DNA from: a virus
Taxonomy: Duplodnaviria > Caudoviricetes
Direction: 5' to 3' (one strand)
DNA: 52,994 nt
IMG/VR virus record: IMGVR_UViG_3300035703_000126
Coordinates: 1-52,994 of that record
The position numbers and the translations under genes were made by a program. Shown here in pieces: positions 7,533 to 52,422 of this stretch. Position 1 is the stretch's first letter; every line of letters begins with the position of its first letter. The notes under the pieces are model-generated. The model did not search any database. It worked only from the letters and a program-made list of their open reading frames with translations, and was not told the DNA's origin.

Positions 7533-7538
7533 GATTTT

Positions 7539-7560
7539 CTCTCCGTGTCTCTGTGGTGAA
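7539..7560 (-). repeat. 22-bp intergenic direct repeat, copy 2
   Basis: Identical to 7180-7201. Confidence 0.9.
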
Positions 7561-7565
7561 GGGAA

Positions 7566-8480: not shown

Positions 8481-8486
8481 GATTTC

Positions 8487-8500
8487 TTCCTTCAATGGGG
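8487..8500 (-). repeat. 14-bp leader repeat CCCCATTGAAGGAA
   Basis: Identical to 9330-9343; 7927-7938 matches 9334-9345 over 12 bp. Confidence 0.85.
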
Positions 8501-8553
8501 TCTGTGGTGAATTGAAGGCCCGCAACGCGGGCCGGGGAACGCACACCGTCAGC

Positions 8554-10611: not shown

Positions 10612-10641
10612 GGGAATACCTGTGCGGGGGCGGGGAGTCAA
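10612..10641 (-). promoter_or_regulatory. putative sigma70-type promoter, leftward
   Basis: TTGACT-17 nt-TATTCC on the - strand. Confidence 0.3.
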
Positions 10642-10674
10642 TACGGGGGGAGTTTTCTTCGGCGGAGGGGCTGT

Positions 10675-11982: not shown

Positions 11983-12403
11983 CGAGCAGTTGCGTCAACT
12001 GGCGGCGATGACGGCGGGGATGGAGCCTGATTTCGACCGGGACTGGGCGTGGGCTTACGACAACATGGCGATGCCTGACGCGATGCCGTTGATGGCTCCG
12101 AGTACGTCCGCGTGGGGTCTTCTGGAGTGGGCGCGGGAGAGCAAAGACAAGTTCGTGCAGCAGTATGTCGCGTACCAGGAGAAGCGGCGGAAGGATGGCG
12201 ACGCGAGCACGATGGAGATGGAGACGGATCGCAAGACGCGGTTCAATGTTATTGACCGTCTTCTGTCGTTTCTGGAGACTGATGTGGAGAAATCCGCGCG
12301 TCAGGCGGTGGAATTGAGCGCGGAAGTTGTGGCCGGAGTGCTGAGAGAGGCGGGATGGTCCGTCGCGCGAATGGAGTCCGTCGTTGATACTGCCGGAAAA
12401 TGA
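11570..12403 (+). CDS. putative terminase small subunit
   Basis: Immediately upstream of and overlapping TerL; helical; GGAG RBS; call rests mainly on position. Confidence 0.5.
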   Translation: MTDREVERSTTDTSCAPEGSTCPSWNPLTEELDSARKRLVQDGRWMAFLKLRDSLLRELKMEPLQAARTALKDFPPIEALTTEEQQERAEQMRLAFMTQAAVAAEKKAAGGGGRRAKEKAGPDAGLMAQAEEKRREIDEQLRQLAAMTAGMEPDFDRDWAWAYDNMAMPDAMPLMAPSTSAWGLLEWARESKDKFVQQYVAYQEKRRKDGDASTMEMETDRKTRFNVIDRLLSFLETDVEKSARQAVELSAEVVAGVLREAGWSVARMESVVDTAGK

Positions 12404-14351
12404 CCTGCATGTGCCCGTGGAATACAACTCCGTGGTGTATCGGGGTCTTACACCGCGTGAAATGGAGTTCAATCTGCGGTTTCGGAAAGAGGCGTTGCAG
12501 GCCGGTTATGAAAGCGCGTCCGATGCGCGGGAATTGATTGAGATTTGCAGCCGCGACGTACTGTTTTTCGTGAATACGTTCTGCTGGCTGCTGGAAACAC
12601 GGGATGCAGCGAAGTGGCAGATCGGAAAACGACTGCCGAACAAGCGCCAGATCCCGTTTATCACCCGTCCGTACCAGGATGAGGGCATTCTGCGGTCGGT
12701 GGCGAACCTCGGAAAACGGGACATCGTGGTCCCGAAGTCGCGCGAGACCGGTGTGACGTGGCTGTATGTGTCGATGGCGGCGTGGGACTGGTTGTTTCAC
12801 GAGGAAACACACATCGGGTTCGCGTCGAAGGACGAGAACACCGTTGATAACCCGGCTGACCCGGACTCTTTGATGGCGAAACTGGACTTTCTGCTCAGCC
12901 GGCTGCCGATCTGGATGCTGGATGCGAAGAAAGACCTGGTGCGGAACGTCACATCGCACTCGTTTTTGAACCAGCGGAACGGATCGTCGATCGTGGGCTA
13001 CGCGGCGACGGCCGATCTTGGCCGTGGCGGTCGTAAAAACTGGTGGCTGATGGACGAATTCCACTTTTTCGGGGCCGGAGACGATGAGCGGGCGATGGAA
13101 TCGACGCAAGGTTCCACCCGATGCCGGGTTCTGGTTTCAACCGTGAACCGGATTCGTGGCCAGAGCGGCTCATTCTTCAACTGGGCGACCAGCGAGGAAC
13201 TCGATCGCGAAGTGATCGTCATCGACTGGAAGGATGACCCGGAAAAGCGGCTGGGAATGTACACCTCAGACCGGGTTGGACAGAGCGACGTGTTCAATCT
13301 GCGGATCGTGGACGAGATATTCTGGAGTGGCTACCGCAGAGATAACGGTTTGTACGCGCATCCGATGGAAACGGGGAAGGATTACCCGTTCATTCTGGAT
13401 GGAAAGACGCGGTCGCTGTACTACGACACGGAATGGCGGCGCAGCACGCCTCAGGCGATGGCGGCGGAACTGGATCGCAACTTCGCGGGGGCAACATCGC
13501 AGGTCTGCGACCAGTCCGTACTGGATACCGCCATGATGAAGGCGGACGACTACGAGTTCACGGCGGATGTGAGGCGGGATGACGCTCAGGAAGACCGCCC
13601 GTATGTGGTTGATCCGTATCAGGACGGCAATCTCGGCCTGTGGTGCGAGATGGAGAACAACCGCCCGATCAAGGATGTGTACGCCGTGGGGTGTGACATC
13701 TCGGCGGGGACCGGTGGGGCGTGGTCGTCGTATTCACACATCGCTGTATTCAGCCGGAAGACCGGGAAGCAGGTGGCTGAGTGGCGAAGCAATCGGTTCA
13801 ATCCGCTGGAGTTCGCCGATCTGGCAATGGCCGTGTGCCGGTGGTTTCACAATGCGTACCTGATTCCGGAGTGCAACGGCCCGCTGGGGACGATGTTTGT
13901 GAACCGGGTTACGGAAGTCGGGTACTACAATCTGTTCTACGCGCGGAAAAGTCAGGAAGATGCGACCGCGCTGGCGGGAAGTCGTCCGGGGTACTGGAAC
14001 AACGACGGAGGCAACCGGATTCTGGTTCAGTTGACTCAGGCGTTGCGTGAGGGGCGCGCGGTCGTGAAGTCGAAGATCGCGCTGCGTGAAATGGGTCGGT
14101 ACATCTACCGGGACGGCAAGTGCGTCCATTCGTCCGTGAAGGATGAGTCCGATCATGGAGCGCGCGGGAAGTCACACGGCGACGCGGCCATCGGGACGGC
14201 AGTGGCGTGGCATGGGATTCTGGACCTTCCAGAGATCCGCAAGGAAGCTCCGCCGGACGAAGTGGTGCGTGGATCGTTTCTTGAGCGGCAGATGCGGGCG
14301 AAGCAGGAGCGGGAAGCTCGCGAACGCCATCGAACATACTGGTCAGCGTGA
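12384..14351 (+). CDS. terL: terminase large subunit
   Basis: Walker A VPKSRETGVTW, Walker B LMDEF, nuclease motifs GCDISAG and HGDAAIG. Confidence 0.92.
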   Translation: MILPENDLHVPVEYNSVVYRGLTPREMEFNLRFRKEALQAGYESASDARELIEICSRDVLFFVNTFCWLLETRDAAKWQIGKRLPNKRQIPFITRPYQDEGILRSVANLGKRDIVVPKSRETGVTWLYVSMAAWDWLFHEETHIGFASKDENTVDNPADPDSLMAKLDFLLSRLPIWMLDAKKDLVRNVTSHSFLNQRNGSSIVGYAATADLGRGGRKNWWLMDEFHFFGAGDDERAMESTQGSTRCRVLVSTVNRIRGQSGSFFNWATSEELDREVIVIDWKDDPEKRLGMYTSDRVGQSDVFNLRIVDEIFWSGYRRDNGLYAHPMETGKDYPFILDGKTRSLYYDTEWRRSTPQAMAAELDRNFAGATSQVCDQSVLDTAMMKADDYEFTADVRRDDAQEDRPYVVDPYQDGNLGLWCEMENNRPIKDVYAVGCDISAGTGGAWSSYSHIAVFSRKTGKQVAEWRSNRFNPLEFADLAMAVCRWFHNAYLIPECNGPLGTMFVNRVTEVGYYNLFYARKSQEDATALAGSRPGYWNNDGGNRILVQLTQALREGRAVVKSKIALREMGRYIYRDGKCVHSSVKDESDHGARGKSHGDAAIGTAVAWHGILDLPEIRKEAPPDEVVRGSFLERQMRAKQEREARERHRTYWSA

Positions 14352-17752: not shown

Positions 17753-17792
17753 GCCGCACCGGCGAGCAACCATAAACGAAGGATGATTGAAC

Positions 17793-18884
17793 ATGACTGC
17801 ACGGACCGCAGAGGACATTGCTGATCTGGTAGCCGGGACGCTGCGCGATCTTGGCCAGCTCAAGTTTGAGAACGTGGCGGACACTCTTCAGGACTGTCCG
17901 GTCATGAACCAGTGGCTGAAGAAGGACAAGATCCTGATCGACGGCGGCTACGGCATTCAGCGCACGCTGATGACGCAGTTGTCCCGTCAGGCGGCACACG
18001 TTTCGTTGAATGCGGAAGACAACACCGACATTCCCGATCTGTCCGCTCAGCTTCAGGTTCCGTGGCGGTTCGCTCGAACCACCTGGGGCTACGAGTATCG
18101 GACCGACATCCTGATGAACCAGCGGGCCGGCGGGTCGAAGAAGATTTTCGACACGCTGAAGATGCGTCGTGCCGATGCGATGCAGTCTCTCGCTGAGGAA
18201 CTGGAAGCGAAGGGATGGTCCACTCCGGCCTCCACCAACGACACCGAGCCTTACGGCATCCCGTACTGGGTTGTGTACAACGCGACCACGGGATTCAACG
18301 GTGGTCTGCCGAGCGGCCATTCCACTCTGGCTGGTGTGAATCTGACGACTCACGCCAACTGGAAGAACTACACGGCGAACTACTCGACCGTGTCGAAGGC
18401 TGACCTGTTCGCGAAGATGCGGACCGGCCTGCGGAAGATGCGCTGGGCGCGGCATCCGGACGATTACTCGAAGCCGCAGACCCGGATGATGATCTACACC
18501 GACAACGACCGCATCGAAGCGTTCGAGAATGTCGGTGAGGCGCAGAACGAGAACCTCGGTCGCGACCTGGCTCCGTATCAGGCTGGTGCGCGGCGGCCAG
18601 AGGATAAGCAGGTGGATGTGAACGGCGAACTGGTGTTCCGCCGGTATCCGGTCTGCTGGGTTCCGCAACTGGACGACACCGCTGTCTACACCGCGGCAAC
18701 GGCGCCGATCTACTGCATCGACCACAGCACGTTCGCTCCGTATGTGCTGGAAGGCGACTACCTCCGGGAAAGCAAGCCGGAGAAAGATCCCAACAAGCAC
18801 AACTGGTTCAGGGTCTTTGTGGACCTGTCCTACAACTACATCTGCCTGAACCGGCGAAGGAACGCGATCTTCGCGACCGGGTAA
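17793..18884 (+). CDS. major capsid protein
   Basis: About 363 aa after the scaffold gene; HK97-fold-like size; typical C-terminus ...CLNRRRNAIF. Confidence 0.85.
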   Translation: MTARTAEDIADLVAGTLRDLGQLKFENVADTLQDCPVMNQWLKKDKILIDGGYGIQRTLMTQLSRQAAHVSLNAEDNTDIPDLSAQLQVPWRFARTTWGYEYRTDILMNQRAGGSKKIFDTLKMRRADAMQSLAEELEAKGWSTPASTNDTEPYGIPYWVVYNATTGFNGGLPSGHSTLAGVNLTTHANWKNYTANYSTVSKADLFAKMRTGLRKMRWARHPDDYSKPQTRMMIYTDNDRIEAFENVGEAQNENLGRDLAPYQAGARRPEDKQVDVNGELVFRRYPVCWVPQLDDTAVYTAATAPIYCIDHSTFAPYVLEGDYLRESKPEKDPNKHNWFRVFVDLSYNYICLNRRRNAIFATG

Positions 18885-32499: not shown

Positions 32500-34449
32500 A
32501 TGCCAGTCCGCTTTCTGGATTCGAGCGTCACGTCGCTTCTCAGTGCGCTGATGAGGGACAGCGGCGTGGATCTTGGCTCCCAGCCGCGATGGTCAAACTC
32601 AACGTCGTTTTACGGTTCTGATCGCTTGCCGATGGCGGCGCCACCTTCAAATGCAATCGCACCTCAGAACGATTATTCGCCGGAAGCACGACAGAGACGG
32701 GCGGCAGCCGCGCAGCAAATGGCTCTCCAGCAGATGGATATGGAGCTGCAGGCGGCGCGAATCGCCAACGCGCAGGCAGAAACAGCCCAGCGAGCGGCCC
32801 TGATGGCGCAGCCGAGAACTGGAGGTGGAGTCGGCGGATCAGCAGGAATGATGGCTGGTACGCAGAAGCCGATGACTCCGGCCGAGTACCGGACGATGTA
32901 CGACCGGGCGGTTGAGAAGCAGCAGTCACAGGCCAATCAACTGAGAGCACGACTGCGTGCTGGTCAGATCAGTCCGGAGATGATTAAGCAGCAGGGCTTC
33001 GATGTTCTTGAGCGTCCCGCAAACGATGAAGACGTAAACGCCGGGCAGGTTGATGCTATTCGCAATGGCGTAGCGTACCGCTACGACCTGTTTCCATTGG
33101 GCGGTGATGCTGCGATCAATCGACTGATGCAGGATGAATTGCGGGCGTATCAAAACTTCATCTCTGGAGGAAATCCAGAGGCCGTCAATCCTCCTGATAT
33201 CGTGAACCAGCCACAGCCTCCCGGCCAGCCGGGCGGCATTCAAGTTCCGCAACCGCCGGCTCCGCCGGGACCGCAGCCGCCTCCAGAGCAGGCTCAGTTT
33301 CAGCAGCGGCGGCAGGCCTGGCAGCAGATGGTCGAAGCAGCCGACGCGGAAGGAAAGGAGTTCACGCCGCAGCAGCAGGCGACGCTCAAGACGCTGGACC
33401 AGCAGGAAGCTCAAATCCTTAAAGACCCACGACTCAGCGGCACGGACCGCAACCGGGCGCTGCTGTTCATTCAGGAAGCCAGGGAGCGACTGACTCCCGA
33501 TCAGAAGAAGATGACCCCGCAGCGGGTGTATCAGGAAAAGGTTATGGAGTTGCCGGACGGCAACAAGGTCACGGTGAACCAGCACGGTCAGCCGGAGATC
33601 ATGATGCCGCCGGCGGACAGCGTGCAGAGACGCGAGCGGGAACTGGACTCGAACATCCGCAATTCCGCGATGGTCGAATGGCAGAAGCTGCTGGACCGTG
33701 GATTCGACGCGGCTCAGGCCACCGCGATCATCGAAGACTTGTTCAAGATTGAGCTGCCGCTTCAGATGCGGTCCGCCCCGCCGTTGCCTGCACCGACTCA
33801 GAGCCAGCCGGCGCCCGCACCGGCCGCGATGCCGGAATCATCTCCGACTGCACCTGGAATGCCGATTCGCCGGCAGACGCTGATGCGATCGGACATGAGC
33901 GGCGTGCCGATCGAAGTGGATCGCATGGCAGTTCAACAGCAGGGAGAAATGCCGCCGGATGTCGCACAGTACATCAACGAAATGATGCAGCGGCCGACTG
34001 CCGGCATTGGCGGTCCGCAGCCGGGCATGGCCCCCGTGATTACGGATGTCGAAGCGGCAATGCGTGCCCGGCCGGCTCCCGCGTCGATCGGAGGTCCGAT
34101 GGGAGTTCCGCAGTCCGCCGTGGAAAGCGCGGTCGGAATCAACCGCAGCGCGCCGATGCCGCCGGCTGGTGCGAGACCGGGAATGCTGAATGACGGCACG
34201 GACCCGTTCGCTCCGAAGACCGATCCTTACGCGAACATGCCGGCCGACCTGCAGGAACTCGGCCGCATGAAGGACACATTCAAGCAGTTCCGGGACGAAA
34301 CGCGGGACCGTCCAATCCGAAAAGCGGCGGCAGACCTGTTCAATCTGAAGAAGAAGATCGCGGCGGGGCAGAAGCTGACTCCGCAGGACATGCAGGTGCG
34401 CGACCGGGCCGTTGAGTTTCTCATGAATGAGGGAGTGCTGTCGCCATGA
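32500..34449 (+). CDS. ejection protein, Q/P-rich
   Basis: Low complexity; precedes the giant protein with ATGA coupling. Confidence 0.65.
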   Translation: MPVRFLDSSVTSLLSALMRDSGVDLGSQPRWSNSTSFYGSDRLPMAAPPSNAIAPQNDYSPEARQRRAAAAQQMALQQMDMELQAARIANAQAETAQRAALMAQPRTGGGVGGSAGMMAGTQKPMTPAEYRTMYDRAVEKQQSQANQLRARLRAGQISPEMIKQQGFDVLERPANDEDVNAGQVDAIRNGVAYRYDLFPLGGDAAINRLMQDELRAYQNFISGGNPEAVNPPDIVNQPQPPGQPGGIQVPQPPAPPGPQPPPEQAQFQQRRQAWQQMVEAADAEGKEFTPQQQATLKTLDQQEAQILKDPRLSGTDRNRALLFIQEARERLTPDQKKMTPQRVYQEKVMELPDGNKVTVNQHGQPEIMMPPADSVQRRERELDSNIRNSAMVEWQKLLDRGFDAAQATAIIEDLFKIELPLQMRSAPPLPAPTQSQPAPAPAAMPESSPTAPGMPIRRQTLMRSDMSGVPIEVDRMAVQQQGEMPPDVAQYINEMMQRPTAGIGGPQPGMAPVITDVEAAMRARPAPASIGGPMGVPQSAVESAVGINRSAPMPPAGARPGMLNDGTDPFAPKTDPYANMPADLQELGRMKDTFKQFRDETRDRPIRKAAADLFNLKKKIAAGQKLTPQDMQVRDRAVEFLMNEGVLSP

Positions 34450-37400
34450 GCAGGCTGAGTCTGTCCGGTCTGGCGGATCTGTATCCGGAACGACAGCAGG
34501 GGCAACCAGCCCGCGATTACCGGATGCAGCCGCAGCCGGGTGGCAGGCCGTTGTCCGTGGGTGGCTATGACCTCGTGTCGCCGGACATGCGTGACACGGC
34601 CGCGCAGGACGCCGCGATTGCCGAACAGGCTCGTCGCGCGGATGCACAGCAAAAGGAACTGGATCGACTGTCCTGGTGGGAGCGGTTCAAGAACATTGGG
34701 GCACGACTCGGCGCCGGCATGAACCCGGACGCTCAGGTGTCACCGGCGGAAATGCCGCTGCCCGATCCGCAGGCAGAAGCCGCGCGAATCATGGAAGAGC
34801 AGCGGAAGGAGCAGGTCCGGAAGTCGAGTCCGTACTACCAGCAGGCGTTGATCGAACTGCAGGCGGAAGACCGGCTGAAACGGCTTGATGCTCAGTACCA
34901 GCGTGAAGCGGATGAGCGGCTCAAGGGCGTCGGACTGCCGCGCATCGGTCTGCGTCCCGGCCAGCAGCCGCCCACGATGGGCCAGGCGATGGCGGAGGAG
35001 ATCGCTCAACGGACCCGCGAGGACCGGGCACGGGAGTCCGGCTATCAGTACGAGACCGGGGCACTGGCGGAAGACCCGTTTGGACGCACTCAGATGCGTT
35101 CCGGAACGCCCGGAGAGAGTCCGCAGTATCCTTTGCTGCGTGACATCGGCATGGGGCTGAGAAACGCTGGCGGTGCTCTCGGCTCTGTGGCGCTCCGGAT
35201 GTTCGGATCGGACGATCTGGCGAATCAGGCGCAGGCCTACATTGAAGGCCAGCGGATGCGTCAGGAGCAGGAACGAACCGGCGACCGATTTCCGTCCATG
35301 ACTCGTGCAGCGGCAGGAGCTACGGAGTCGGCGGCAACGCTTCTCGGAGCCAGTGCTGTCGGCGGGATGCCGGCCGTGATCGCCACCTACGGCGCGGAGG
35401 CCTTCGATCAGGGGCTGTACGACGCGAAGCAGGCCGGGCTGGTTGGAAACGACCAGTTGCGCTACGCAGCCGGCGAGGCGGCCATTGCGAGCCTTGTGTC
35501 GCCGATCATGGATCGACTCGGCATGTCCGGCGTTGAGAAGGCGGCGATGGCACAGCGCGTCGCCAATCGGACGATGCGGAATGCCTTCGGAAACCTGGCA
35601 AAGACGGAGGCCGGTGAATTTGGTCAGGAGCTTCTGGAGCTGTCGCTGTCGTCCGCATTGCAGGCGGAAACCGGCGTCGATCCGCAGGCACTGGAACTCA
35701 GCACGTTCATGCCGCGAGTGGCTGATACGGCTTTGACGACGATGCTGACAGTCGGCGCCGTCGAGTCCCCGAACATTGCAGCGGCAGTGGATCGGTTCAT
35801 CCGCGAGCCAAGCCGGAAGAACTACGCCGGCCTGCCGGAGGAAATCCGCGCGCCGCTGGGCGACACCGTGAAGTCCTCGGCGGACCGGCAGCGACTGGCC
35901 GAACAACTGATCGCGAATCAGACGCCGCCGCAAACGGAACCGCTTGAAACCGCTCGAAACCGCTCGAAACCGGAGGAAGCACTTCAGCCCGGCGTTACTT
36001 CGCCGCCGGGACCGTCCGCCGGGAGTCCTCAGCTACCGATGGGGACTCCCGGTGTCCAACCAGAAGATCAAGGCGTCCCGTCTCAGGTTCCAGTTCTCAG
36101 TCCCGGAGAGGAGGTGATCGTTGATGAAGAGCGGATGCAAAGGGGGCCGGAAGGGCGGCAAAGGGAAGTAGTCGCGCCACCGGTTCCCGATCCGACAGAG
36201 CAGGCCGGCGGCATCCCCGTCGCCGCCGAGCCTGCTGCTGCTCCTGCTGAAACAGCTCCCGCGCAATGGATGCTGACTCCGGAAGACACTGCGATCGCTG
36301 AGAGGGCTATTCGCGACGTGATCAGGGCTGGCAAGCCGCGCATCCAGGACGCGGATGTCGATGATCTGACCGGCAAGGTTCTCGATGTTGTCGCGACGCA
36401 GTTTTCTCCGGAGCGTGGGAACCTGCGAAACTACGCGCGGAAACTTGCGAAGAATGCCCGAACGACCTTCATGCGAGAGCGGCAGCGCGGTCCTGAGCAG
36501 ATGCCGGAAGGTGTTACCGATTCTGGTGCAGTCGATCCGGCGATCGAGGCGCAGATCAACGAACGCGCCCGGGCGGAAGGCATCGACATCAACGTGCCGG
36601 AAGTCCCCGATGTGCCGCAGGTCGGCAACGCGCCGCCACAGCCAGATCCCGGACAGGCGGCAACGGACATGCCGAAGATCAGGGCCAACAACGTATGGGT
36701 CGGACAATCCGGTCCCGTGCGGATCAACAGCACCAAAGGCGGACTGGTGACATTCAAACCCGTTGGCGCCGCAGGGGAACCGCAGACCCTTCCGGAGAAT
36801 GAGTTCCGCCAGCAGTACACTCCACGCGGAGCGACCCAGCCACCAGCCCAACCCGTCGAACCAGTCACGACTGAAAGACCGCTGTATGACCGAGCGGTTG
36901 ACTTTGCTGTCGGCAAAGGTGTCGTGAGCACTGGAATGCTGCAAAGGGAGTTTGGACTCGGATACACCGGCGCGGCACAACTGATCGACCAGATGACAGA
37001 CTCTGGCGTGATCGCCCCATCAACCGGAGCGCAGGAGCGAAAGGTATTGCTGACTTCAGCACCGCAGGCAGTCGCTCCACCAGCACAACCTTCCGTGCCG
37101 CCCACAGAGCAGCCGCAACAGGCAGGACTGCAAACGCCTTCCCCGCAACCGGTGGACACGATCGCCGGCCGGATGGATCTGACTGAGTTCGAGACGAAGG
37201 GGTACGCGCCGGAGCAGGTCACGCGGCAGGACTGGATCAACCTGCAGAGGGCTGAGCGTCGTCGGCTGGGGCAGCCGGAAGAATCCGGGACGCAGTACGC
37301 TCCGTTTGCTGACTACGAAGAGTTCCATCGCGACGCTGTCAGGCAGGCAGTCGCGCGCGGCGATGAAGTTGATCCCCAGGTTCTGGCGGACTATCCCGAT

Positions 37401-40400
37401 CTGGCTCCCGCGTCGTCGGCCGTCGAGCCGGAGAAGACGATCGGCCAGCAGGCAGAGCCGGAGTCACAGCCAACTCCGGCAATAAGCTTCGAGCAGTTCG
37501 CCGACGCGATGGAGCGATCTGAACGAGGGGCGAAGCGTGATGGATCACTGGTGTCATTCGGAGACCTCCGGCGAGAAACAGGCCTCAGCAAGCCGGACTT
37601 CGACGCAACCGTCCTGCGATTCAAAGCGGAGGGCAAGCTGAATCTGCACACCGACGACTTCCCCGGCAACAGAACTGCCGAGGAACGTGAGCGGTTCATC
37701 CCAACAAAGACAGAGCGCGGCGACACATACTTTCTTGGCGCGTCAATCAGCGAAACTGCGCGCGACGAACTGGCCAGGCAGCCGGCTGCCACTCCACAGG
37801 CCACACCGGAGGCGACTCCTGCGCCGCCCGCCGAATCGCCGCAGAAACCAGTGAAGCCGCGAACGCCGGGCAAGCCACTCAATCGCACGCAGAAAGATGC
37901 AGCCCTGCGGCATCACTTCACGCCTGGAAAAATTGTCCCGTCATACAGCGGACAGGATCGGGTGATCGCATTCAATCCGGGCGGCCCTGAGTCCACATGG
38001 AGCGTGGACGTGCAGGCTGTTGACGAAAGCGGTACTCCTATCGAGGGCGAGGTTGTTCGACGGCACGGCACGGAGCCGGACGCGAAGACGCTCCTGAAGG
38101 CCTACGATGATCTGGTGGCATCGCAGCAGGCAACCGCCCGGCCGACAGAGCCAGAGGCGAAGCCCGCCAGGAAGAGGAAGGAATCACCAGAGCGGGAACC
38201 ATACCGCAGGACAACTGACGCATCGCCGGAAGGGCGAGCGCTGCTGCGATCACAAACGGAAGCATATCGTGACAGAATCACTGAGCTTGAGCCTCGGCTT
38301 AAAGATGCCAGAAAACGTCTGGCCAACACGCGATCTAACGCACACAAGAAGCGAGGCGAAATTCAGACTGAGATCAACGAGATCGAAAACGAAATAGGCC
38401 GATGGAGACGCATGGAGCAAAAGGCGGCAGACGAGTACCGCCGTGCTGCAATTGAGGACGCGATGGAGGATCCGAAATCAGACCTGCATCGTCAGGCTGG
38501 TCTTCGCGAACTCGCCATGCTCGATTTTCGGGAGGCGGAACGGCGAGGTGCAGATGCCCGCGAGAAACGAGATCGAGGGTCGTATGACGCGGCCATGAAG
38601 CAGATGAGCAGCCTGGAAGACAGAATCCGTGCGATGGATCACGATCTTGAAGCTGGGTTTTCTCAGATCGCCATTGAAAGGCACGGGGATGCTCTGACTC
38701 CAAACGAGATCGCATCAGTCGCATCGCTGTCAAAATATGACTTCAACGTGGATTCGCGAGGCACTCCGGAATCAGTCATCGACAGTCGCGCCGAAGAACA
38801 GATTGCCGGTCGCAAGAACAACGTGAGCCTGGCGGATATCAGCGGGCTTCCTGAGGATGATCGGCAACGGCTGGAAAAGCAGATCGAGGATGACCTGCGA
38901 AAGAAGGAGTGGCACGAAACCGTTACGCGAGTGCGGAATGAGGCGTCTGAGATTGCCAGAACCGCACGAGAGGAATCACAGAAGCGGAAAGCGAAGGAGG
39001 CGCAGGAAGCTGCTGAGGAGAAAAGAAAGTCAGATATTGCAGAGGCCAAAGAGAAGTATGCGCAGCGCAAGTCAAGCTCCACCGAACTGCGATACTGGAA
39101 GCAACTGAAGGAACGTGCCAGCAAGATCAAGACACAGAAGGATGTGTCAGGAAAGTATGGCGACGATGCTGTGAAAGGGGACGCCGTCGGCGAGACCTGG
39201 CTAATTTACGCCGCCGGAAAGGGGGATTACGTCCTGATTCACCGTCCATCCGGCATTGGAGTGACGCACGCCACGAATCCGAGCAACGCTAAACAGCTCA
39301 TTTTGATGCTGGAAGACGCCGGCATTGATATGTCGAAGTACGAAACGGCCGACTCTATCCCGGCAGATGTCGCGAAGCTCGCCGGGCAGATCGTTCGCGC
39401 ATGGGATAATGAGGACTTCCAGCAGATCACCGACGATGGGAAGCGTGGCGATATTTTGTCGCGAGTCCAGAAGCCTGATGTTGGGGTGAAGTTCGATATC
39501 GAAGTCGATGCGGCTGATGTTGAGAGTGCGAAGAAGATTGGAAGTAAATCTGCAGAGCAGCGACTGCGAGAGTTTGTCCGCGAGGTTCCGGAGTTCGGCT
39601 ACAACCCCGTCTTCACGGTGGATGACAACAAAAGACTGGTCTTCAAGGATGGTTTCAAGTTTGCGCTGAACCCGGAATTATTCGGGATCGACGCCGACAT
39701 TCTGGAGCCGGGATTTCGCGTTGCCGTCAATCTGGAAGACATTGGCATCGCGCGGCCGACTGCCGCCGAAGTCGTGAAGGATGTGCTGAGCCGCGAATTC
39801 AAAGTGACCAAGAGCGGTCCATCCGTGTTCGCCGTCAAGCCGCTGGATAAGCCCGATGGTCCGGCTGTCGTGGTTCGACAGGGCAGCGGAGAAGAATGGA
39901 TCGCCGGAACCGGATCGGACGCTCCGCACTACGCACGAGTCGAACAACTCCTGAAGGGCATCCCGTGGCGGGAAAGCGAGCAGGTTGCAAAGAACGACAA
40001 GGCGGCCGACGCCGACGCACAAGAGTCGCTTCCGCCAGTTGTCGCCGCTCCATACAAGGATGACTTCGCAAGGATTCTGCCAGTTTTAGACCGTCAGGTC
40101 AGGGCGGAAATCAGCCCGAATAAACAGAAGACTATTGCCATCAGCCACATGGATGGCGAGCCGCCGGCAATTCAGCGGGCTATTGCAGAACGCCTGCAGC
40201 AAATTGCTCCGGATGCGGTTCGGAGTGCCATCGCTCAGCCAAAGTCTGTTCCGATTGGCATGATGGCTCATTTCAGGGCGGTCACCACTGAGCTTGACTC
40301 TGAACGACCTGGTGGATCATCGGCGGTCGGAATGCCGGCGAAATCATCGAAGCCGGTTCCCGCTGTGCCACGGGACATGCCGCTGTTGTTGCCGCCGGCC

Positions 40401-43400
40401 GGAGACACCGGGAAGCCTGTGGCGATCCGCACCATCATGAATGCTCTGGAGCAGGCGGTATCCCTGCTCGGCAATGAAGTGCCGATTCGCGTCGGAAAAA
40501 TGTCGCAACGAACGGCACTCGGCATCTTCAAGGTTCACGATGAAGTCGCGCGCATCCGAGAAGCCAACGACCTTGAAACGGCCGCTCATGAAATGGGACA
40601 CGCCATCGACAAGTTGATCAATGGCTGGCCTAAGGGTGGACCGTGGAAAACGCCGCGAGTGCAAAAGCTGGTGCAGGATGAACTGACAGCAATCGGCCGA
40701 TCCCTCTACGTCGATACCGCGCCAACCGGAGGATACAAGCGCGAAGGCTGGGCGGAGTTTGCCCGGCTGTGGCTGACTGATCCGGAGTCGGCCGCGAAAT
40801 TTGCCCCACATACGTCGGAGTGGTATCGAGACACATTTGAGAAGGCGTATCCGAAAGCCGCTGCGGCTCTGCGGGAAGTGCAAGGCATGATTACGAAATG
40901 GAGAGAGCAGGGAGCGAAAGCACGACAGAGTACGGCGATCATCGACACCGGCAGTGTTCCGCAGAGAGTTGAGCGCATTAAAAAGTGGGCAAAGCACGCC
41001 GTCAGCATGGAAGCCCATATCGAGATGCTGGAGCCGCTGTGGGGTTTGGCCAGAGAAGCCGAGAAGCGAACTGGCAGGGAGCTGGCTGCGACAGACGATC
41101 CATACGCTATCGCGGATGCCTTGCGGATGGTTCATCATGCGCGAGTCGAGACATGGGTTCGGCACGGCATGACCGACCTGGCCGGAATGCCGACAGGAGT
41201 GAAACCGCTCAGTGACGTCGGAAAGCTGATTCCAGAACAAGAGCGGAACGACTTTGTGCTGTATTTGTGGGCGAGACGGGCACTGGCCTTGATTCTCGAT
41301 CCCCGTGGCCCGCGAAATCCCGGCATGTCGCTCAACGAAGCGGAATACCTCATCGCCGAGCTTGATAACCCGCGATTCCGGGAAGCGGCGCAGATCGTGT
41401 ACGACTGGAATGATGGCGTTCTGGATTACGCGGCTTCTGCCAGTCCAGTGTTCGCTGATGTTGTTCAACGAATCCGTGCGCGTGATCCCGGCGCATACAT
41501 TCCTCTTGCCCGATACTTCCGGGAACTCGATGAGATTTACAGCCGGAGCGGTGGCGGCAACGACATGATGGGCACGTTGATGGGCAAGTTGCGAGGGTCC
41601 GGCCGGGAAATCAAAGACCCGATTCCGCAGATGATCGCCAACGCCACAAAGATGGCGCACGCGGCGCATGACCGCATGATTCTGGACGCGATTCAAAAGC
41701 TGTCCGCGAACGTGCAGGGGCTGGGGAAGTACATCGAGAAAGTGCCGCGCGATAAAGTTCCGGCGGCGGCCGTGTCCGTCGAGGAACTTCTGCGGACACT
41801 GGAAAAGAAACTGTCGGAGCAGGAAATCGACATGACACTGACTCGTTACGACGAGCCAGTTGAGAAAGAAGACCTTCAGGATCTGATTGGCGAGACAGTC
41901 ACGTTCTTTACGACGGCAATCAATCCGTCAGGTCCGTATCCGATCATGCCGATGTATGACGCGACAACGAAGAAGATTGAGTGGTTCTATCTCAACGGCA
42001 ACCTGTATCACGCACTTGGCGCCATCGAGATGGCGGGGCTTCCAATGATTGGAGGGTTCAATCTACTGGCTCCGCTGGCCGCATTGAATCGACTGCGGAA
42101 AGCGGGAACTGTCGGCTTGCGAGCGGCATTCCAGTTGTTCACAAACCCGACTCGCGATCTTCAGACACTGCTTCAGAACACGCAGTCGCGGGCGACTCTA
42201 CCTAAAGTCGCATGGGAGTACGCACGCCAGACTCTAGGTGCCGCATGGAATCTCCTGCCAGGAACCCAGCCGACATCGGCAATGCAGTTCTGGAGAAACG
42301 CGGGCGGGCATGTCGCGCAGATGCTTGGCGAAGATACAGCACGCACACGAGAGTTAGGCAGTGAGGTGTTCGGTAAGAAGTTCAGCCGGCGACTGCTGCC
42401 GTCGAACTGGTGGAGCAACGTCAAAGACGCATACGACATTTACAAGGACATCGTCCAGATTCCGGAAGCAACAGCCCGCGCCACTGAGGTGCAGTTGCTG
42501 ATGGACGAAATGGGCATCAAACCTGGGGACCGCATCACGCTGGAGCAATCCCTGCGGCTGCTGACGGCGGGCAAGAAGGTTACGGTGGACTTCAGCGCCG
42601 CCGGCGAGTTTGCGCGGGTCTGGAATCAGCTCGCTCCGTTTTACAACGTCGCCATTCAGGGACCGCGTTCTATGGTGCGAGCGGCGCAGAAGAACCCGTT
42701 TGTTTTCACCGTGCGACTGGCGCAGGTGGCTGCACTGTCCGCGCTGTTGTGGTGGCGGAATAAGGATGAGGAATGGTATCGCAAGCTGAACACACGGCTG
42801 AAGACGATGTACTGGAGCTTTCGATATGGCGATCAGGTCATACTGCTTCCCAAAGCATTCGAGAACGGTGTCGGAGTGGCCGGCTTTGTTGAGTCCATGC
42901 TGGATCAGCAGTACGGACAGAATCCTGAGGCCGTGACGGAGTGGTTTCACCAGTTTATGGAAACTGCCACCCCGAACTACATACCGGGCGTTGCCGATGA
43001 GGTTCTGGCTCAGGCGATGAATGAAGACCTGTTCTGGAAGACGCCGATTGAGTCGCCGGAATTGCAGCGCATGCCGCGTCATGAGCGATTTAATGAGTAC
43101 ACGTCAGGCGTGGCAAAGTGGCTCGGCAAAACCATGAAGTGGTCGCCAGCTCGCATTGATCACGCTTTGCGCGGCATTGCGGGACCAATGGCTGGAGATG
43201 TGACGAGAACACTTGATGAGATTGTCGGAGTCAGCACGAAGCGAACGAGAGAGTGGGAGCCGGCAGACCTTCCGGTGATCGGTAAGGCGTTTCAACGTGG
43301 CGGAATCCACGGAACCCGCACGGCGAACATTGACAGGCTGTATGAGCGGCGAGCGGAAATGAACCTGCGGTCAAACAGTAAGGAGAACCCGGAAACGCCA

Positions 43401-43796
43401 CAGCAGCGACAGCAACGGCTGATGTTGAATGATGCCGCAGAGGCGGTGTCGGATATCTATCAGGCGCGGCGACAAATGGAAAAGACAGAAGATCGCGGCA
43501 AGGCGACTGATGAAGCGGATCGTATCGCGACTGATGCGCTGAAACGCCTTGAGTCCGGGACGCTGCCGCCGGAGCGCATCGCCATCCTGGTCGAGAACGC
43601 CATCTCTGAGGGGAAGTCCGAGAAGGCTCAGCAGGAGTCCCGCGAGGCACTGCTGATCCTCAAGCAGTCAGGGCTGTCCGCGCGGGAAATCACACAGGCC
43701 TACACGAAGAAGAAGCGAGCGGACAAGGAGCGTGTTCTGCCGTCGAACCTCAACAGGCTGAGGCTGCGGCTGTCGCGAACGAAGGCCGAAGAATGA
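34446..43796 (+). CDS. giant (3116 aa) polyvalent ejection protein with sigma70-r2-like, FtsK-gamma, wHTH, zincin HExxH and LPD38-like domains
   Basis: FSPERGNLRNYARKLAKN; PLYDRAVDF...LQREFGLGY..AA.LIDQM; AAHEMGHAID; C-terminal W..DEEWY...YW...LPK...SPARIDHALRG. Confidence 0.8.
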   Translation: MSRLSLSGLADLYPERQQGQPARDYRMQPQPGGRPLSVGGYDLVSPDMRDTAAQDAAIAEQARRADAQQKELDRLSWWERFKNIGARLGAGMNPDAQVSPAEMPLPDPQAEAARIMEEQRKEQVRKSSPYYQQALIELQAEDRLKRLDAQYQREADERLKGVGLPRIGLRPGQQPPTMGQAMAEEIAQRTREDRARESGYQYETGALAEDPFGRTQMRSGTPGESPQYPLLRDIGMGLRNAGGALGSVALRMFGSDDLANQAQAYIEGQRMRQEQERTGDRFPSMTRAAAGATESAATLLGASAVGGMPAVIATYGAEAFDQGLYDAKQAGLVGNDQLRYAAGEAAIASLVSPIMDRLGMSGVEKAAMAQRVANRTMRNAFGNLAKTEAGEFGQELLELSLSSALQAETGVDPQALELSTFMPRVADTALTTMLTVGAVESPNIAAAVDRFIREPSRKNYAGLPEEIRAPLGDTVKSSADRQRLAEQLIANQTPPQTEPLETARNRSKPEEALQPGVTSPPGPSAGSPQLPMGTPGVQPEDQGVPSQVPVLSPGEEVIVDEERMQRGPEGRQREVVAPPVPDPTEQAGGIPVAAEPAAAPAETAPAQWMLTPEDTAIAERAIRDVIRAGKPRIQDADVDDLTGKVLDVVATQFSPERGNLRNYARKLAKNARTTFMRERQRGPEQMPEGVTDSGAVDPAIEAQINERARAEGIDINVPEVPDVPQVGNAPPQPDPGQAATDMPKIRANNVWVGQSGPVRINSTKGGLVTFKPVGAAGEPQTLPENEFRQQYTPRGATQPPAQPVEPVTTERPLYDRAVDFAVGKGVVSTGMLQREFGLGYTGAAQLIDQMTDSGVIAPSTGAQERKVLLTSAPQAVAPPAQPSVPPTEQPQQAGLQTPSPQPVDTIAGRMDLTEFETKGYAPEQVTRQDWINLQRAERRRLGQPEESGTQYAPFADYEEFHRDAVRQAVARGDEVDPQVLADYPDLAPASSAVEPEKTIGQQAEPESQPTPAISFEQFADAMERSERGAKRDGSLVSFGDLRRETGLSKPDFDATVLRFKAEGKLNLHTDDFPGNRTAEERERFIPTKTERGDTYFLGASISETARDELARQPAATPQATPEATPAPPAESPQKPVKPRTPGKPLNRTQKDAALRHHFTPGKIVPSYSGQDRVIAFNPGGPESTWSVDVQAVDESGTPIEGEVVRRHGTEPDAKTLLKAYDDLVASQQATARPTEPEAKPARKRKESPEREPYRRTTDASPEGRALLRSQTEAYRDRITELEPRLKDARKRLANTRSNAHKKRGEIQTEINEIENEIGRWRRMEQKAADEYRRAAIEDAMEDPKSDLHRQAGLRELAMLDFREAERRGADAREKRDRGSYDAAMKQMSSLEDRIRAMDHDLEAGFSQIAIERHGDALTPNEIASVASLSKYDFNVDSRGTPESVIDSRAEEQIAGRKNNVSLADISGLPEDDRQRLEKQIEDDLRKKEWHETVTRVRNEASEIARTAREESQKRKAKEAQEAAEEKRKSDIAEAKEKYAQRKSSSTELRYWKQLKERASKIKTQKDVSGKYGDDAVKGDAVGETWLIYAAGKGDYVLIHRPSGIGVTHATNPSNAKQLILMLEDAGIDMSKYETADSIPADVAKLAGQIVRAWDNEDFQQITDDGKRGDILSRVQKPDVGVKFDIEVDAADVESAKKIGSKSAEQRLREFVREVPEFGYNPVFTVDDNKRLVFKDGFKFALNPELFGIDADILEPGFRVAVNLEDIGIARPTAAEVVKDVLSREFKVTKSGPSVFAVKPLDKPDGPAVVVRQGSGEEWIAGTGSDAPHYARVEQLLKGIPWRESEQVAKNDKAADADAQESLPPVVAAPYKDDFARILPVLDRQVRAEISPNKQKTIAISHMDGEPPAIQRAIAERLQQIAPDAVRSAIAQPKSVPIGMMAHFRAVTTELDSERPGGSSAVGMPAKSSKPVPAVPRDMPLLLPPAGDTGKPVAIRTIMNALEQAVSLLGNEVPIRVGKMSQRTALGIFKVHDEVARIREANDLETAAHEMGHAIDKLINGWPKGGPWKTPRVQKLVQDELTAIGRSLYVDTAPTGGYKREGWAEFARLWLTDPESAAKFAPHTSEWYRDTFEKAYPKAAAALREVQGMITKWREQGAKARQSTAIIDTGSVPQRVERIKKWAKHAVSMEAHIEMLEPLWGLAREAEKRTGRELAATDDPYAIADALRMVHHARVETWVRHGMTDLAGMPTGVKPLSDVGKLIPEQERNDFVLYLWARRALALILDPRGPRNPGMSLNEAEYLIAELDNPRFREAAQIVYDWNDGVLDYAASASPVFADVVQRIRARDPGAYIPLARYFRELDEIYSRSGGGNDMMGTLMGKLRGSGREIKDPIPQMIANATKMAHAAHDRMILDAIQKLSANVQGLGKYIEKVPRDKVPAAAVSVEELLRTLEKKLSEQEIDMTLTRYDEPVEKEDLQDLIGETVTFFTTAINPSGPYPIMPMYDATTKKIEWFYLNGNLYHALGAIEMAGLPMIGGFNLLAPLAALNRLRKAGTVGLRAAFQLFTNPTRDLQTLLQNTQSRATLPKVAWEYARQTLGAAWNLLPGTQPTSAMQFWRNAGGHVAQMLGEDTARTRELGSEVFGKKFSRRLLPSNWWSNVKDAYDIYKDIVQIPEATARATEVQLLMDEMGIKPGDRITLEQSLRLLTAGKKVTVDFSAAGEFARVWNQLAPFYNVAIQGPRSMVRAAQKNPFVFTVRLAQVAALSALLWWRNKDEEWYRKLNTRLKTMYWSFRYGDQVILLPKAFENGVGVAGFVESMLDQQYGQNPEAVTEWFHQFMETATPNYIPGVADEVLAQAMNEDLFWKTPIESPELQRMPRHERFNEYTSGVAKWLGKTMKWSPARIDHALRGIAGPMAGDVTRTLDEIVGVSTKRTREWEPADLPVIGKAFQRGGIHGTRTANIDRLYERRAEMNLRSNSKENPETPQQRQQRLMLNDAAEAVSDIYQARRQMEKTEDRGKATDEADRIATDALKRLESGTLPPERIAILVENAISEGKSEKAQQESREALLILKQSGLSAREITQAYTKKKRADKERVLPSNLNRLRLRLSRTKAEE
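35941..35970 (+). repeat. 3 x 10-bp tandem repeat CGCT(T/C)GAAAC inside the giant gene
   Basis: cgcttgaaac cgctcgaaac cgctcgaaac. Confidence 0.85.
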
Positions 43797-44701: not shown

Positions 44702-45457
44702 ATGCCCGACGCGGTCATCTACAGCCGCTTCTCGCCGCGGCCGGAAAAGGCCGGCGATCAGGAACTCAAAGCCCGCGCCGAAGACGCAGCCACGATCCAG
44801 CAGCAGATCGACGCCTGCCGGCGATACTGCGACATGAAGGGCTTCACAGTCACTCAGGTCATTCGCGATCCGGAAACATCAGCCCGGCACACGAAGCTCT
44901 TCGAGCGACCCGGCGGATCAGCACTGCTCGAACTGCCGCCAGGCACGCACATCGTCGCCGCCAAGCTCGACAGGCTCTTCCGTAACACGATCGACGGACT
45001 GTCCTCGATGTCCACGCTGCGGCGGAATGGACTCACGCTGCACCTCGCCGATCAGGGTGGATGCACGATCGACACCAACACCGCCATCGGGGAACTCATC
45101 ACCACGATGCTGCTCAGCGTCGCCGCCTTCGAGCCGCGACAGACAGCCGAACGGGTCAGCAAGGGAATGCGCTACCGCCAGAACACGCTTCGCCAGCGCA
45201 TGTCCGCCAACGTCCCGTTCGGATTCAGGCTCTGCCCGGACACCAATCTACTGATCGACGACGAACACGAACGGCAGCTCATGAAACGCTGCCATGCCCT
45301 TCGCAAGCAGGGCTTCTCCCTTCGGGAGATCATCGCAATCCTCGTCAGGGACGGCGACGAGAAATGCCGCGGGAAACAGTGGCACCCCAACACGATCCAG
45401 CGGCTGATCGAAGCGCACGAGAAGCATCTGGTCCCAGCAGGAGCAGCATCGGCATGA
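44702..45457 (+). CDS. serine recombinase (resolvase family with recombinase-domain tail)
   Basis: YSRFS catalytic Ser, RPG, KLDRLFRN, TAIGEL, ERVSKGM, VPFGF. Confidence 0.9.
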   Translation: MPDAVIYSRFSPRPEKAGDQELKARAEDAATIQQQIDACRRYCDMKGFTVTQVIRDPETSARHTKLFERPGGSALLELPPGTHIVAAKLDRLFRNTIDGLSSMSTLRRNGLTLHLADQGGCTIDTNTAIGELITTMLLSVAAFEPRQTAERVSKGMRYRQNTLRQRMSANVPFGFRLCPDTNLLIDDEHERQLMKRCHALRKQGFSLREIIAILVRDGDEKCRGKQWHPNTIQRLIEAHEKHLVPAGAASA

Positions 45458-47628: not shown

Positions 47629-47634
47629 TTCACA
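47546..47634 (+). repeat. attC recombination site
   Basis: R'' GCCTAAC, 5 nt, L'' GTTGCAGC, GCCGCC/GGCGGC stem, L' GCTGAAC, 6 nt, GTT; one extra base in L''. Confidence 0.85.
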
Positions 47635-48142
47635 GAATCCACGGCGCCACGGTCACGTTCGGCAGGCGAGCCAGATCGCCAGGCGTCGTCTCCGCTGGAA
47701 CACCGAACTTCGGAACTCCGACCAGCATCAACGCGAACGCTGCCAGCTCCGAACAGAACCACCGCTCGGCGTGCAGGTCAGTTTTCAACTTCCACGCCCG
47801 GCTGATCCGACGCCACACCCACGAAAACGATCGCACGAACTGACGCGGCGAAGCGTACTCCTCACCGATCCGATGCAGCAGGAACCGCTTGATCTCCTGC
47901 CGCTGCTCGCCATCCAGCCCGTCCACCCGCCCGATCGCACAGTGACCGCGCCACTGCTGCCAGACATACGGCCGAACGATCCGCACGCCCTTGCCTTCGA
48001 GCGCCTCCACGATCCACAACTGGCCCTCGACCTCGACGAACACGCCGACGTGCGACCACTCCGACCCCGACCGCAGCCGGATCAGCCGCGACCACAGCCG
48101 CCTTCCGCTGAACAACGCCAGATCGCCCGTCCGTGGCTCCAT
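47630..48142 (-). CDS. permuted NlpC/P60 papain-like amidase (YiiX/YebB-like)
   Basis: GDLALFSG, WSHVGV, FCSEL and TPGDL. Confidence 0.85.
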   Translation of the reverse strand: MEPRTGDLALFSGRRLWSRLIRLRSGSEWSHVGVFVEVEGQLWIVEALEGKGVRIVRPYVWQQWRGHCAIGRVDGLDGEQRQEIKRFLLHRIGEEYASPRQFVRSFSWVWRRISRAWKLKTDLHAERWFCSELAAFALMLVGVPKFGVPAETTPGDLARLPNVTVAPWIL

Positions 48143-48561: not shown

Positions 48562-49380
48562 TTACCTCTTAACCTTCGGCAGCGGCTGTGCCTGCTTTGC
48601 CGCCCGGATCGCATACGCCCGGTGAAACCGGATCGTCCGCTCCAGGTGGCCCGATCGCAGCAACGCACGGCCGCTTGAACCCCACCTCACGCCCCACGAA
48701 TTGGACATCGTGAAGGCCAGTTCGCCGTCCGCCCACGCCAGCCCGTCCGCCAGAACCGCGTGATTCCCGGCTCCGTTGTCGATCCCCGCGAAGCCGTTCC
48801 GATCCAGCTTCGAGAACGAATCGCCTACATGCACGGCCAGCACCAGATCGAAACCCATCGCCAGAGCTGTGAACGCCCCGCGAACGGTCTCGACGGCATA
48901 GCACTCATGCGCCCGGTACAGCTTCGCTTCCCGGTCCGCCTGCTGAACGTCGTACTGGTTGCGGTAAATCTGATGCGGCCTCACCGTTGGCTCCGACGCG
49001 CAGCCGCGATCCATCAACGCTGCCATGCCGCGGTGCAGCGTGGAACCCTCGTCCCGGCCGTCGTTGACCAGCGAGTACAAATACGACCCGGACAGGTCCA
49101 CGCGGTCCTGACCACCGCGAACCCTCGCCCGCGCCAGAGCCATCGCTCCGGCCCAGCCATTACAGGAACCTGCCGCGCCCTGGTCTTTGATCCAGTTGCG
49201 GTCCTCGAACAGCGTGCGGCCGTCGAGCTTCCCGGTTCTGGCGATCTTCTCCAGTGCGCTGTCGGACATCTCCGGCACTGCGAAGACCGGCATCGACAGC
49301 TTCAAGCCCGGTTCCGGCAGCAGAGTCGCCAGCTTGCGCTCCACGCCGTCAATCACAATCACTGGCAGAGACTGAGTCAT
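48562..49380 (-). CDS. papain-family (C1) cysteine peptidase
   Basis: KDQGAAGSC, LSGSYLY, GNHAV and NSWG.RWG. Confidence 0.88.
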   Translation of the reverse strand: MTQSLPVIVIDGVERKLATLLPEPGLKLSMPVFAVPEMSDSALEKIARTGKLDGRTLFEDRNWIKDQGAAGSCNGWAGAMALARARVRGGQDRVDLSGSYLYSLVNDGRDEGSTLHRGMAALMDRGCASEPTVRPHQIYRNQYDVQQADREAKLYRAHECYAVETVRGAFTALAMGFDLVLAVHVGDSFSKLDRNGFAGIDNGAGNHAVLADGLAWADGELAFTMSNSWGVRWGSSGRALLRSGHLERTIRFHRAYAIRAAKQAQPLPKVKR

Positions 49381-52349: not shown

Positions 52350-52422
52350 CGGGCTGTAGTTCAGGTGGAGCAGAACATGACCAGACGTGGTCAAGGCGTG
52401 CGTTCGAGTCGCACCAGTCCGG
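52350..52422 (+). ncRNA. tRNA-like RNA with a 6-nt (or 4-nt) anticodon loop
   Basis: Acceptor CGGGCTG/CAGTCCG; TA; D-arm GTTC..GAAC; TGACC-AGACGT-GGTCA; T-arm GTGCG-TTCGAGT-CGCAC. Confidence 0.75.

Follow-up and report, generated by a model that had tools for sequence, protein, structure and literature searches.

An optional FtsK-gamma cassette with an altered recognition helix in a giant polyvalent phage protein

A motor-less FtsK-gamma domain in a giant gene

The window analysed here comprises the whole of the linear IMG/VR virus record IMGVR_UViG_3300035703_000126 (52,994 bases; estimated completeness 68%) and carries a giant gene on its plus strand, at positions 34446–43796. Its open reading frame (ORF) runs without interruption for 3116 amino acids and encodes a polyvalent, putative ejection protein. 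Residues 810–869 of this protein (36873–37052, plus strand, like every feature of the gene given below) form a winged-helix domain of the FtsK-gamma family. The domain sits on a cassette of 71 residues (803–873; 36852–37064) that is missing from the closest sibling of the protein. An earlier note, based on the letters of this DNA, had singled out the peptide encoded at 36876–37052 as an FtsK-gamma domain with an altered recognition helix inside a giant ejection protein, and this peptide was confirmed to lie in frame 1 within the 3116-residue ORF.

Sequence and predicted structure both establish residues 810–869 as a genuine winged helix of the FtsK-gamma type. The domain matches the Pfam family FtsK_gamma (PF09397) over profile positions 3–62 of 63 and scores 60.8 bits (E 1e-16) in the context of the whole protein, against a curated gathering cut-off of 30.6; the 59-residue piece by itself reached 67.3 bits. 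A six-frame search of the contig with the same profile found one single place, at 67.6 bits. Comparison with the sequences of the Protein Data Bank (PDB) by phmmer returned six distinct matches, every one an FtsK and all aligned without gaps: 2j5p (E 2.9e-7), 5dcf, 2j5o, 2ve8/2ve9, 2ius and 2iut. An AlphaFold2 model computed from an 87-row alignment has a mean predicted local distance difference test (pLDDT) score of 86.3, with values of 92–98 in the core and just 58–70 at the linker-side ends, and consists of three helices and a wing (H1, 813–824; H2, 829–836; H3, 840–853; wing strand, 865–867). When this model was compared with known structures by Foldseek, ranks 1–10 were occupied exclusively by FtsK gamma chains, from either E. 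coli or P. aeruginosa, with root-mean-square deviations of 1.2–3.8 Å (most 1.2–2.2 Å) and target-normalised template-modelling (TM) scores of 0.69–0.86; no rank beyond the first reached E <= 0.001, a usual outcome with queries of 60 residues. The profile search and the structure prediction that the earlier note had proposed as checks both bear out its identification of the domain.

For comparison within the family, an exhaustive HMMER search was run, and its 150 best proteins supplied 300 gamma instances. The fold-defining positions of the domain are retained (L813, A817, S828, L832, Q833, R834, G839, Y840, A843, D848, G854, P858, G861, R865, V867 and L868), each being the majority residue among these nearest instances. 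The gamma domains of FtsK itself (E. coli 2J5P and 5DCF; P. aeruginosa 2J5O, 2VE8 and 2VE9) belong to the same Pfam family, have the same fold and are 35–38% identical to the window domain, with the core motif S-x-x-LQR...GY-x-x-AA...D-x-M...G...P...G...R-x-VL common to both. However, FtsK gamma is C-terminal on an alpha/beta translocase, whereas the window domain lies mid-chain in a 3116-residue phage protein. Neither of the motor profiles PF17854 and PF01580 matched this protein in Pfam searches, the Walker-A pattern G....GK[ST] does not occur in it, and PF01580 found no match anywhere in the contig, which is an estimated 68% complete. The absence of a motor domain, as the earlier note had it, is thus borne out; the carrier is not an FtsK, and its membership in the FtsK family is limited to the gamma domain.

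An optional cassette in a polyvalent carrier

A search with residues 600–1950 found a sibling protein, P0152 (4423 amino acids, on a contig of 56,112 bases), which is 79% identical to the window protein over residues 1–806, with long identical runs. Pairwise MAFFT alignment leaves a clean gap of 71 residues in P0152, corresponding exactly to the cassette, between flanks that are common to the two proteins (...PRGAT(Q)PPAQ and QAVAPPAQPSVPP...). A custom hidden Markov model (HMM) built from the 300 gamma instances, which recovers the window copy at 75.6 bits, was run without filters and found no gamma domain in P0152–P0155 (best domain E 1.3 or worse), and Pfam found none in the relatives encoded on three viral contigs, L002–L004. 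Because P0152 shares near-identical flanks yet does not have residues 803–873, the gamma domain is an optional cassette in a proline-rich linker of a variable cargo region; being absent from the closest sibling, it is an extra rather than a core part of the protein. Other slots differ between the two proteins as well, the cargo of P0152 including a Strawberry-notch-type ATPase, and such differences among siblings are the domain shuffling expected of polyvalent proteins. P0152 alone has both flanks (P0153–P0155 share only residues ~869–1025), so that the indel is as compatible with a gain in the window protein as with a loss in P0152. Nevertheless, two siblings that differ at the gamma domain by one exact 71-residue cassette constitute a clean natural experiment, through which the contribution of the domain is directly measurable.

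The composition of the cassette and the repeats around it were also inspected. The GC content at third codon positions is 0.577 in the cassette and 0.68–0.69 in its flanks; this drop is not significant, as it falls at the 14th percentile of the 71-codon windows of the gene, and a foreign origin argued from composition was therefore set aside. The cassette is bracketed by two direct copies of a 14-base, PPAQP-coding sequence (36840–36853 and 37077–37090), which agree at 13 of 14 positions. Both PPAQ copies are kept in P0152, which makes the repeat a feature of the linker and rules it out as a deletion scar.

No close relative that carries the cassette was found in the searches made for it. A word-based search of giant proteins with residues 780–900 returned only the protein itself among 142 candidates. 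In IMG/VR, the cassette as query found one distant locus, L005, and the N-terminal 800 residues as query found none. A metagenome scan gave five loci and no close relative; judged by their open frames, two are of FtsK size (~800 residues), one has 440 residues and two are cut by contig ends, and the helix motif reads GYNRAAR in four of the five and GYGRAAR in the remaining one. Nine loci in diverse bacterial metagenome-assembled genomes were obtained in a genome scan, all matching the gamma part of the query only, at 33–55% identity; no prophage relative was found among the nine, and they gave no usable hint of a host. As this domain variant has no close homologue, selection on the cassette is not measurable.

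LPD38 is the sole other Pfam domain above cut-off in the carrier. It occupies residues 2775–2944 (42768–43277; PF18857, E 2.9e-28, 99.7 bits, cut-off 27) and was also found in the L002, L003 and L004 relatives. Around it extends a C-terminal module (residues 1952–3045; 40299–43580) that is common to complete proteins of about 1.5 thousand residues on two of these contigs; identity is 37% to the L003 protein (1562 residues; 1112 columns aligned) and 32% to that of L004 (1544 residues; 1242 columns). L002 holds a partial copy, and the module matches PHROG 9854 (E 6e-24). Within it, a HEMGH motif at residues 2047–2051 (40584–40598) is followed ~50 residues on by EGWAEF (about 2099–2104), both read directly from the translation and both kept in the alignments to L003 and L004. 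An HExxH motif with a downstream Glu is the zincin signature, and the module is zincin-like in this respect; no Pfam peptidase profile matched it in searches of the whole protein and of sub-segments.

At the other end of the chain, residues 1–470 (34446–35855) are similar to P0152 and include an Ala/Gly-rich hydrophobic stretch (~284–450), of which residues 284–406 weakly match the N-terminal part of the 1562-residue L003 protein (E 5e-6). Proline-rich linkers, visible in the translation, flank the gamma domain. Ten sub-segments of the carrier searched against Pfam gave nothing above cut-off, and residues 1000–1105 matched only unnamed clusters in the protein atlas. A further slot upstream of the cassette (residues ~636–683; 36351–36494) resembles region 2 of sigma-70 factors below threshold (Pfam Sigma70_r2, 13.5 bits, E 0.066, cut-off 24), and the homologous slot of P0152 (residues ~628–745) is above the cut-off with 26.9 bits (E 4.3e-6). 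The word 'sigma' is absent from the main text of the survey of polyvalent proteins by Iyer et al. 2017 (J Bacteriol, PMC5512222).

The giant gene closes a run of genes on one strand, from 10603 onwards, which holds a gene with a single-stranded-DNA-binding (SSB) domain, a terminase-large-like gene (12384–14351) and a major-head-like gene (17787–18884). Its ATG overlaps the stop codon of the upstream ORF (32500–34449) as ATGA. The C-terminal 416 residues of the carrier match 29 of 50,697 phage records, among them those of Bacillus Pagevirus phages, of Pelagibacter phages and of an Aeromonas phage, whose protein is annotated as 'putative virion structural protein'; the LPD38 gene matched in Bacillus phage Palmer (1678 residues) sits directly ahead of the holin genes. 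The carrier is thus a phage-type polyvalent protein: a large multidomain chain with an LPD domain, modules swapped among siblings, and a location among late/virion genes. Mass spectrometry of purified virions revealed LPD38 giants in two phages, JC1 (gp69; PMC9144972) and phi24B (gp47, for which an ejection role has been proposed; bioRxiv 10.64898/2026.04.10.717836). From homology to these LPD38 giants and the late-gene position, we infer that virions of this phage probably contain the carrier and release it along with the DNA. The term 'giant ejection protein' used by the earlier note therefore stands for the class of the carrier, given by homology and gene position, while packaging into the virion is a likelihood drawn from the family.

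Recognition helix and candidate roles of the cassette

The recognition helix H3 (residues 840–853; 36963–37004) was delimited by DSSP on the model, in which it spans positions 41–54. The helix segment of E. coli FtsK aligns without gaps to GYTGAAQLID of the window domain (HMMER), which gives the correspondences N1296 to T841, R1297 to G842, R1300 to Q845, E1303 to D848 and E1306 to T851. Thr, Gln and Asp at the Asn, Arg and Glu positions, as read by eye in the earlier note, were thereby confirmed. Among the 300 instances, however, not all of these differences carry the same information. Position 841 is variable (A 34%, G 21%, S 13%, N 10%), and Asp at 848 is the family majority (78%), so that T841 and D848 are uninformative. 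The unusual residues are G842, Q845 and T851: position 842 is Arg or Lys in 85% of instances and Gly in this domain alone; position 845 is Arg or Lys in 64% and Gln in 5%; and position 851 is Glu in 85% and Thr in 3%. An altered recognition helix was therefore right in substance, with the changes of R1297 to Gly and E1306 to Thr omitted from the earlier list. The nearest single-domain relatives all retain GY-N/S-R-AA-R.

In E. coli FtsK, N1296, R1300 and E1303 are described as the residues that read the FtsK-orienting polar sequences (KOPS) (PMC2533119), and the mutants R1300A, E1303A and the 'blind' R1300A/E1303A/E1306A are reported to lose KOPS reading (PMC2680272). The corresponding set in the window domain is T841, Q845, D848 and T851. 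This E. coli set is not general in the family, the combination N, R, R, [DE], E being present in only 12 of the 300 sampled instances. The fold is thus intact, while the canonical KOPS-reading set is gone and the DNA-facing surface is much poorer in positive charge. The cassette is predicted not to be a KOPS reader, because each of the four residues relevant to KOPS in E. coli is replaced and basic residues are missing from helix 3.

The only other giant gamma carrier of the sample allows a limited comparison. P0116, a metagenomic protein of 2202 residues, is likewise giant and motor-less, with a Gly/Ala-rich N-terminal stretch, an early gamma domain and a later HEMGH motif; unlike the window protein, it has two tandem gammas instead of one and no LPD38, and no similarity is detectable beyond gamma. 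Both of its gammas are non-basic at the positions of R1297 and R1300 (842 and 845). All three gamma domains of the two giant carriers thus have this pattern, as against 21 of the other 297 instances, which hints at a shared adaptation, in a biased sample with two such proteins.

Our favoured explanation, held at about an even chance, takes the cassette for a bead in the variable cargo part of a polyvalent protein that the virion delivers, whose chain comprises an N-terminal region, a zincin-like module (HExxH...E) and LPD38 near the C-terminus. The bead would bind double-stranded DNA (dsDNA) with low sequence specificity and would keep the cargo part attached to a duplex, for which the phage genome, inside the head or on its way into the cell, is the most plausible candidate. 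A single copy should bind weakly, given the changed KOPS residues and the lack of basic residues in helix 3, and several copies of the giant protein would act together. Such a dependence on several copies is expected because canonical gamma monomers themselves bind poorly; the monomer is reported to bind KOPS poorly and to require a covalent trimer (PMC3384302). A precedent is given by Iyer et al. 2017 (PMC5512222), who list the FtsK winged helix-turn-helix among infrequent dsDNA-binding domains of polyvalent proteins, with a Cupriavidus example, and predict for it a role of this kind in binding dsDNA. The concept is the same, namely a predicted dsDNA binder in a large protein delivered with phage or conjugative DNA; the text devotes one sentence to it and offers no residue analysis, and the likeness is one of description. 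No description of the cassette indel or of the helix-3 pattern was found in the main texts of the literature on polyvalent FtsK, LPD38 and phage FtsK gamma, whose supplements may hold more. The FtsK winged helix in polyvalent proteins is already in print, and what is new here is the cassette indel and the loss of basic residues from helix 3; the finding confirms and refines a published theme and opens no new one.

Several observations weigh against this explanation. There is no Lys or Arg at helix-3 positions 841–852, as in just 12 of the 300 instances, and only three over positions 826–866, where three or fewer were counted in only 6 of the 300; G842 occupies a place that is Arg or Lys in 85%. 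Such a depleted basic surface could mean little or no DNA affinity. The 300-instance set was itself seeded by the query and is biased, not the whole family, which counts 4591 proteins at E <= 0.001, and the nearest domain in the exhaustive HMMER search (1.84 billion cluster representatives at 50% identity) is just 52% identical. Packaging of a 3116-residue protein is, moreover, an extrapolation from family resemblance. Finally, a search of the contig under a maximal-order Markov model found no over-represented or strand-skewed 7–10-mer (best z ~3). Canonical KOPS were found twice where 6.3 were expected, which is no excess. These target searches are weak negatives for a contig that is 68% complete and has no assigned host. 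Still, the re-targeted DNA reader that the earlier note had suggested does not find support, since the contig shows no enriched or skewed 7–10-mer and KOPS fall below chance.

Another explanation, which we regard as unlikely, is that the cassette is a KOPS-blind module directed at XerD: the injected gamma would bind XerD of the host, or a related tyrosine recombinase, and switch XerCD on or off independently of FtsK, by which phage DNA multimers could be resolved or host chromosome segregation disturbed. In the E. coli gamma, KOPS and XerD are reported to use one shared surface, with XerD contacts at Q1288, R1289, R1292, I1293, G1294 and N1296, of which R1289 is critical, and the nine FtsK residues 1289–1297 fused to XerC suffice to stimulate recombination (PMC5052618). 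The window domain keeps Q1288 and R1289 as Q833 and R834, together with G839 and Y840; of the six contacts, Q, R and G are identical, and Ile to Leu is a conservative change. Its most unusual positions (1297, 1300, 1303 and 1306) are moreover those at which changes in E. coli spare XerD activation: R1300A, E1303A and the triple 'blind' mutant are described as fully supporting XerCD-dif recombination (PMC2680272), and R1297 is among the residues without observed direct XerD binding, changes of which gave wild-type recombination (PMC5052618). Nevertheless, two of the six contact residues are changed (R1292 to Gly and N1296 to Thr), only four of the nine residues of the minimal peptide are identical, and retention of Q833 and R834 is not specific evidence because ~90% of the sampled gamma domains have both. 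The contig, at its estimated completeness, has no tyrosine recombinase or integrase and no dif-like site within three mismatches of a gamma-proteobacterial pattern, again weak negatives; and the cassette is dispensable in P0152. A bolder form of this proposal, which we think quite unlikely, holds that the cassette is a natural separation-of-function gamma that has lost the KOPS-reading residues of helix 3, has kept the Q-R pair that grips XerD and, once injected, toggles the XerCD of the host without FtsK. If this were true, the phage would command the machinery of chromosome-dimer resolution from the first moment of infection.

The cassette may instead be a decaying passenger, acquired by shuffling and losing its DNA-binding surface with no new function gained; this, too, we consider improbable. 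The variant is a singleton, the sibling and all other examined relatives being without the cassette, and basic residues dominant in the family are lost at positions 826, 835, 842, 845 and 863. Tandem gamma arrays, in addition, often include one copy that is non-basic at 842, and such copies resemble degenerate repeats. On the other hand, the frame is intact with all fold-defining positions retained, and the model is confident, although its confidence leans on the family alignment. The P0116 gammas, both non-basic at 842 and 845, also speak against decay to the extent that they hint at shared adaptation.

Two further explanations fare worse. It is very unlikely that the gamma domain supplies DNA binding to the sigma-70 region-2-like module ~130 residues upstream and thereby forms an injected factor for transcription takeover, the pair imitating a sigma factor of two domains on the DNA as it enters: the P0152 slot does match Sigma70_r2 above cut-off and injected redirectors of transcription are known, such as the N4 virion RNA polymerase and T4 Alt (as mentioned in PMC5512222), but the match in the window protein is weak and below threshold, and in P0152 the sigma-like module stands without gamma, so the two are no fixed pair. 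A decoy for host FtsK/XerCD was proposed in the earlier note; its KOPS version, with the domain sitting on KOPS of the host or rivalling FtsK for them and so derailing chromosome segregation, has homology to a KOPS-reading domain in its favour and is nonetheless hardly credible, since all four residues whose change to alanine blinds E. coli FtsK to KOPS are altered, helix 3 has no basic residue and even a canonical single gamma is reported to bind KOPS poorly (PMC3384302).

Giant virion-packed polyvalent proteins are thought to bring the ready-made tools of many phages into the cell, and their cargo domains are almost wholly unassayed. The cassette has, at the positions mutagenised in E. coli, the pattern that abolishes KOPS reading and spares XerD activation, and it is therefore a convenient probe of whether motor-less phage gammas act on DNA or on Xer recombinases.

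Other gamma carriers and neighbouring genes

The closest known counterparts of the carrier as a whole are phi24B gp47 (2811 residues), from an E. coli Shiga toxin (Stx) phage, and JC1 gp69, from a Burkholderia phage. As described, both are very large late products that combine a metallopeptidase module with an LPD38 domain close to the C-terminal end, a likeness that consists in a shared Pfam domain and gene position. Their cargo (methylase/helicase, LPD1/3/5 and lytic transglycosylase) is unlike that of the window protein, and gamma is not among the domains reported for them.

Gamma domains without a translocase occur elsewhere in phages, for example in the small-terminase fusion of Bacillus phages Sam46 and Sam112, in RdgC-like fusions and in small tandem-gamma proteins; the role of stand-alone gamma genes is given as unknown by the Sam46 authors (PMC8190038). 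These other motor-less phage gammas are small proteins or fusions, mostly with a GY-x-R-AA-R helix, whereas the window gamma is a single domain in a giant late protein, its helix stripped of basic residues. The nearest relatives of the window domain are mostly not FtsK: among the 150 best proteins of the HMMER search, 130 have no motor Walker-A, and the 149 other than the giant protein itself have a median length of 217 amino acids. Most of P0003–P0151 hold two to four tandem gammas, a large class of small proteins that seems little described. By tblastn, the window domain matches 72 of 50,697 phage records at E <= 1e-3 and is thus uncommon in sequenced phages; none of the annotated records among the 60 matches listed has a virion-protein label, and many of the records have no annotation.

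Two proteins of the search combine gamma with a TIR domain. P0016 (310 residues) consists of TIR_2 and two gamma domains, and P0014 (892 residues) has an FtsK alpha/beta motor, two gamma domains and TIR_2; from their domain composition, these fusions look like defence-type proteins that may use gamma as a DNA sensor. The distant IMG/VR locus L005, a viral contig of 9.3 kb, encodes at 7254–7799 (+) a protein of 181 residues with a short match to the RdgC C-terminus and a gamma domain (73.7 bits), whose helix 3 likewise has Gln at the position of R1300. This gene is flanked on one side by a P2 gpD-like tail gene and on the other by a tyrosine integrase gene, with 8030–9076 (+) adjoining it.

Among the other genes of the window, a serine recombinase of 251 residues (44702–45457, +; Pfam Resolvase, E 2.9e-23, 83 bits) begins ~0.9 kb past the giant gene, and a tRNA-like gene, its anticodon unresolved by ARAGORN, lies at 52350–52422 (+). 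The SSB-domain gene that heads the same-strand run (10603–11982, +) encodes 459 residues, unusually long for an SSB protein, with the SSB domain confined to residues 198–289 (Pfam, E 7e-11). On the strand opposite to the giant gene, two genes for papain-like cysteine peptidases or amidases (47630–48142 and 48562–49380, both minus), one matching Peptidase_C92 with 28.8 bits (cut-off 27) and the other Peptidase_C1 with 30 bits (cut-off 20.7), may encode lysis or cell-wall enzymes.

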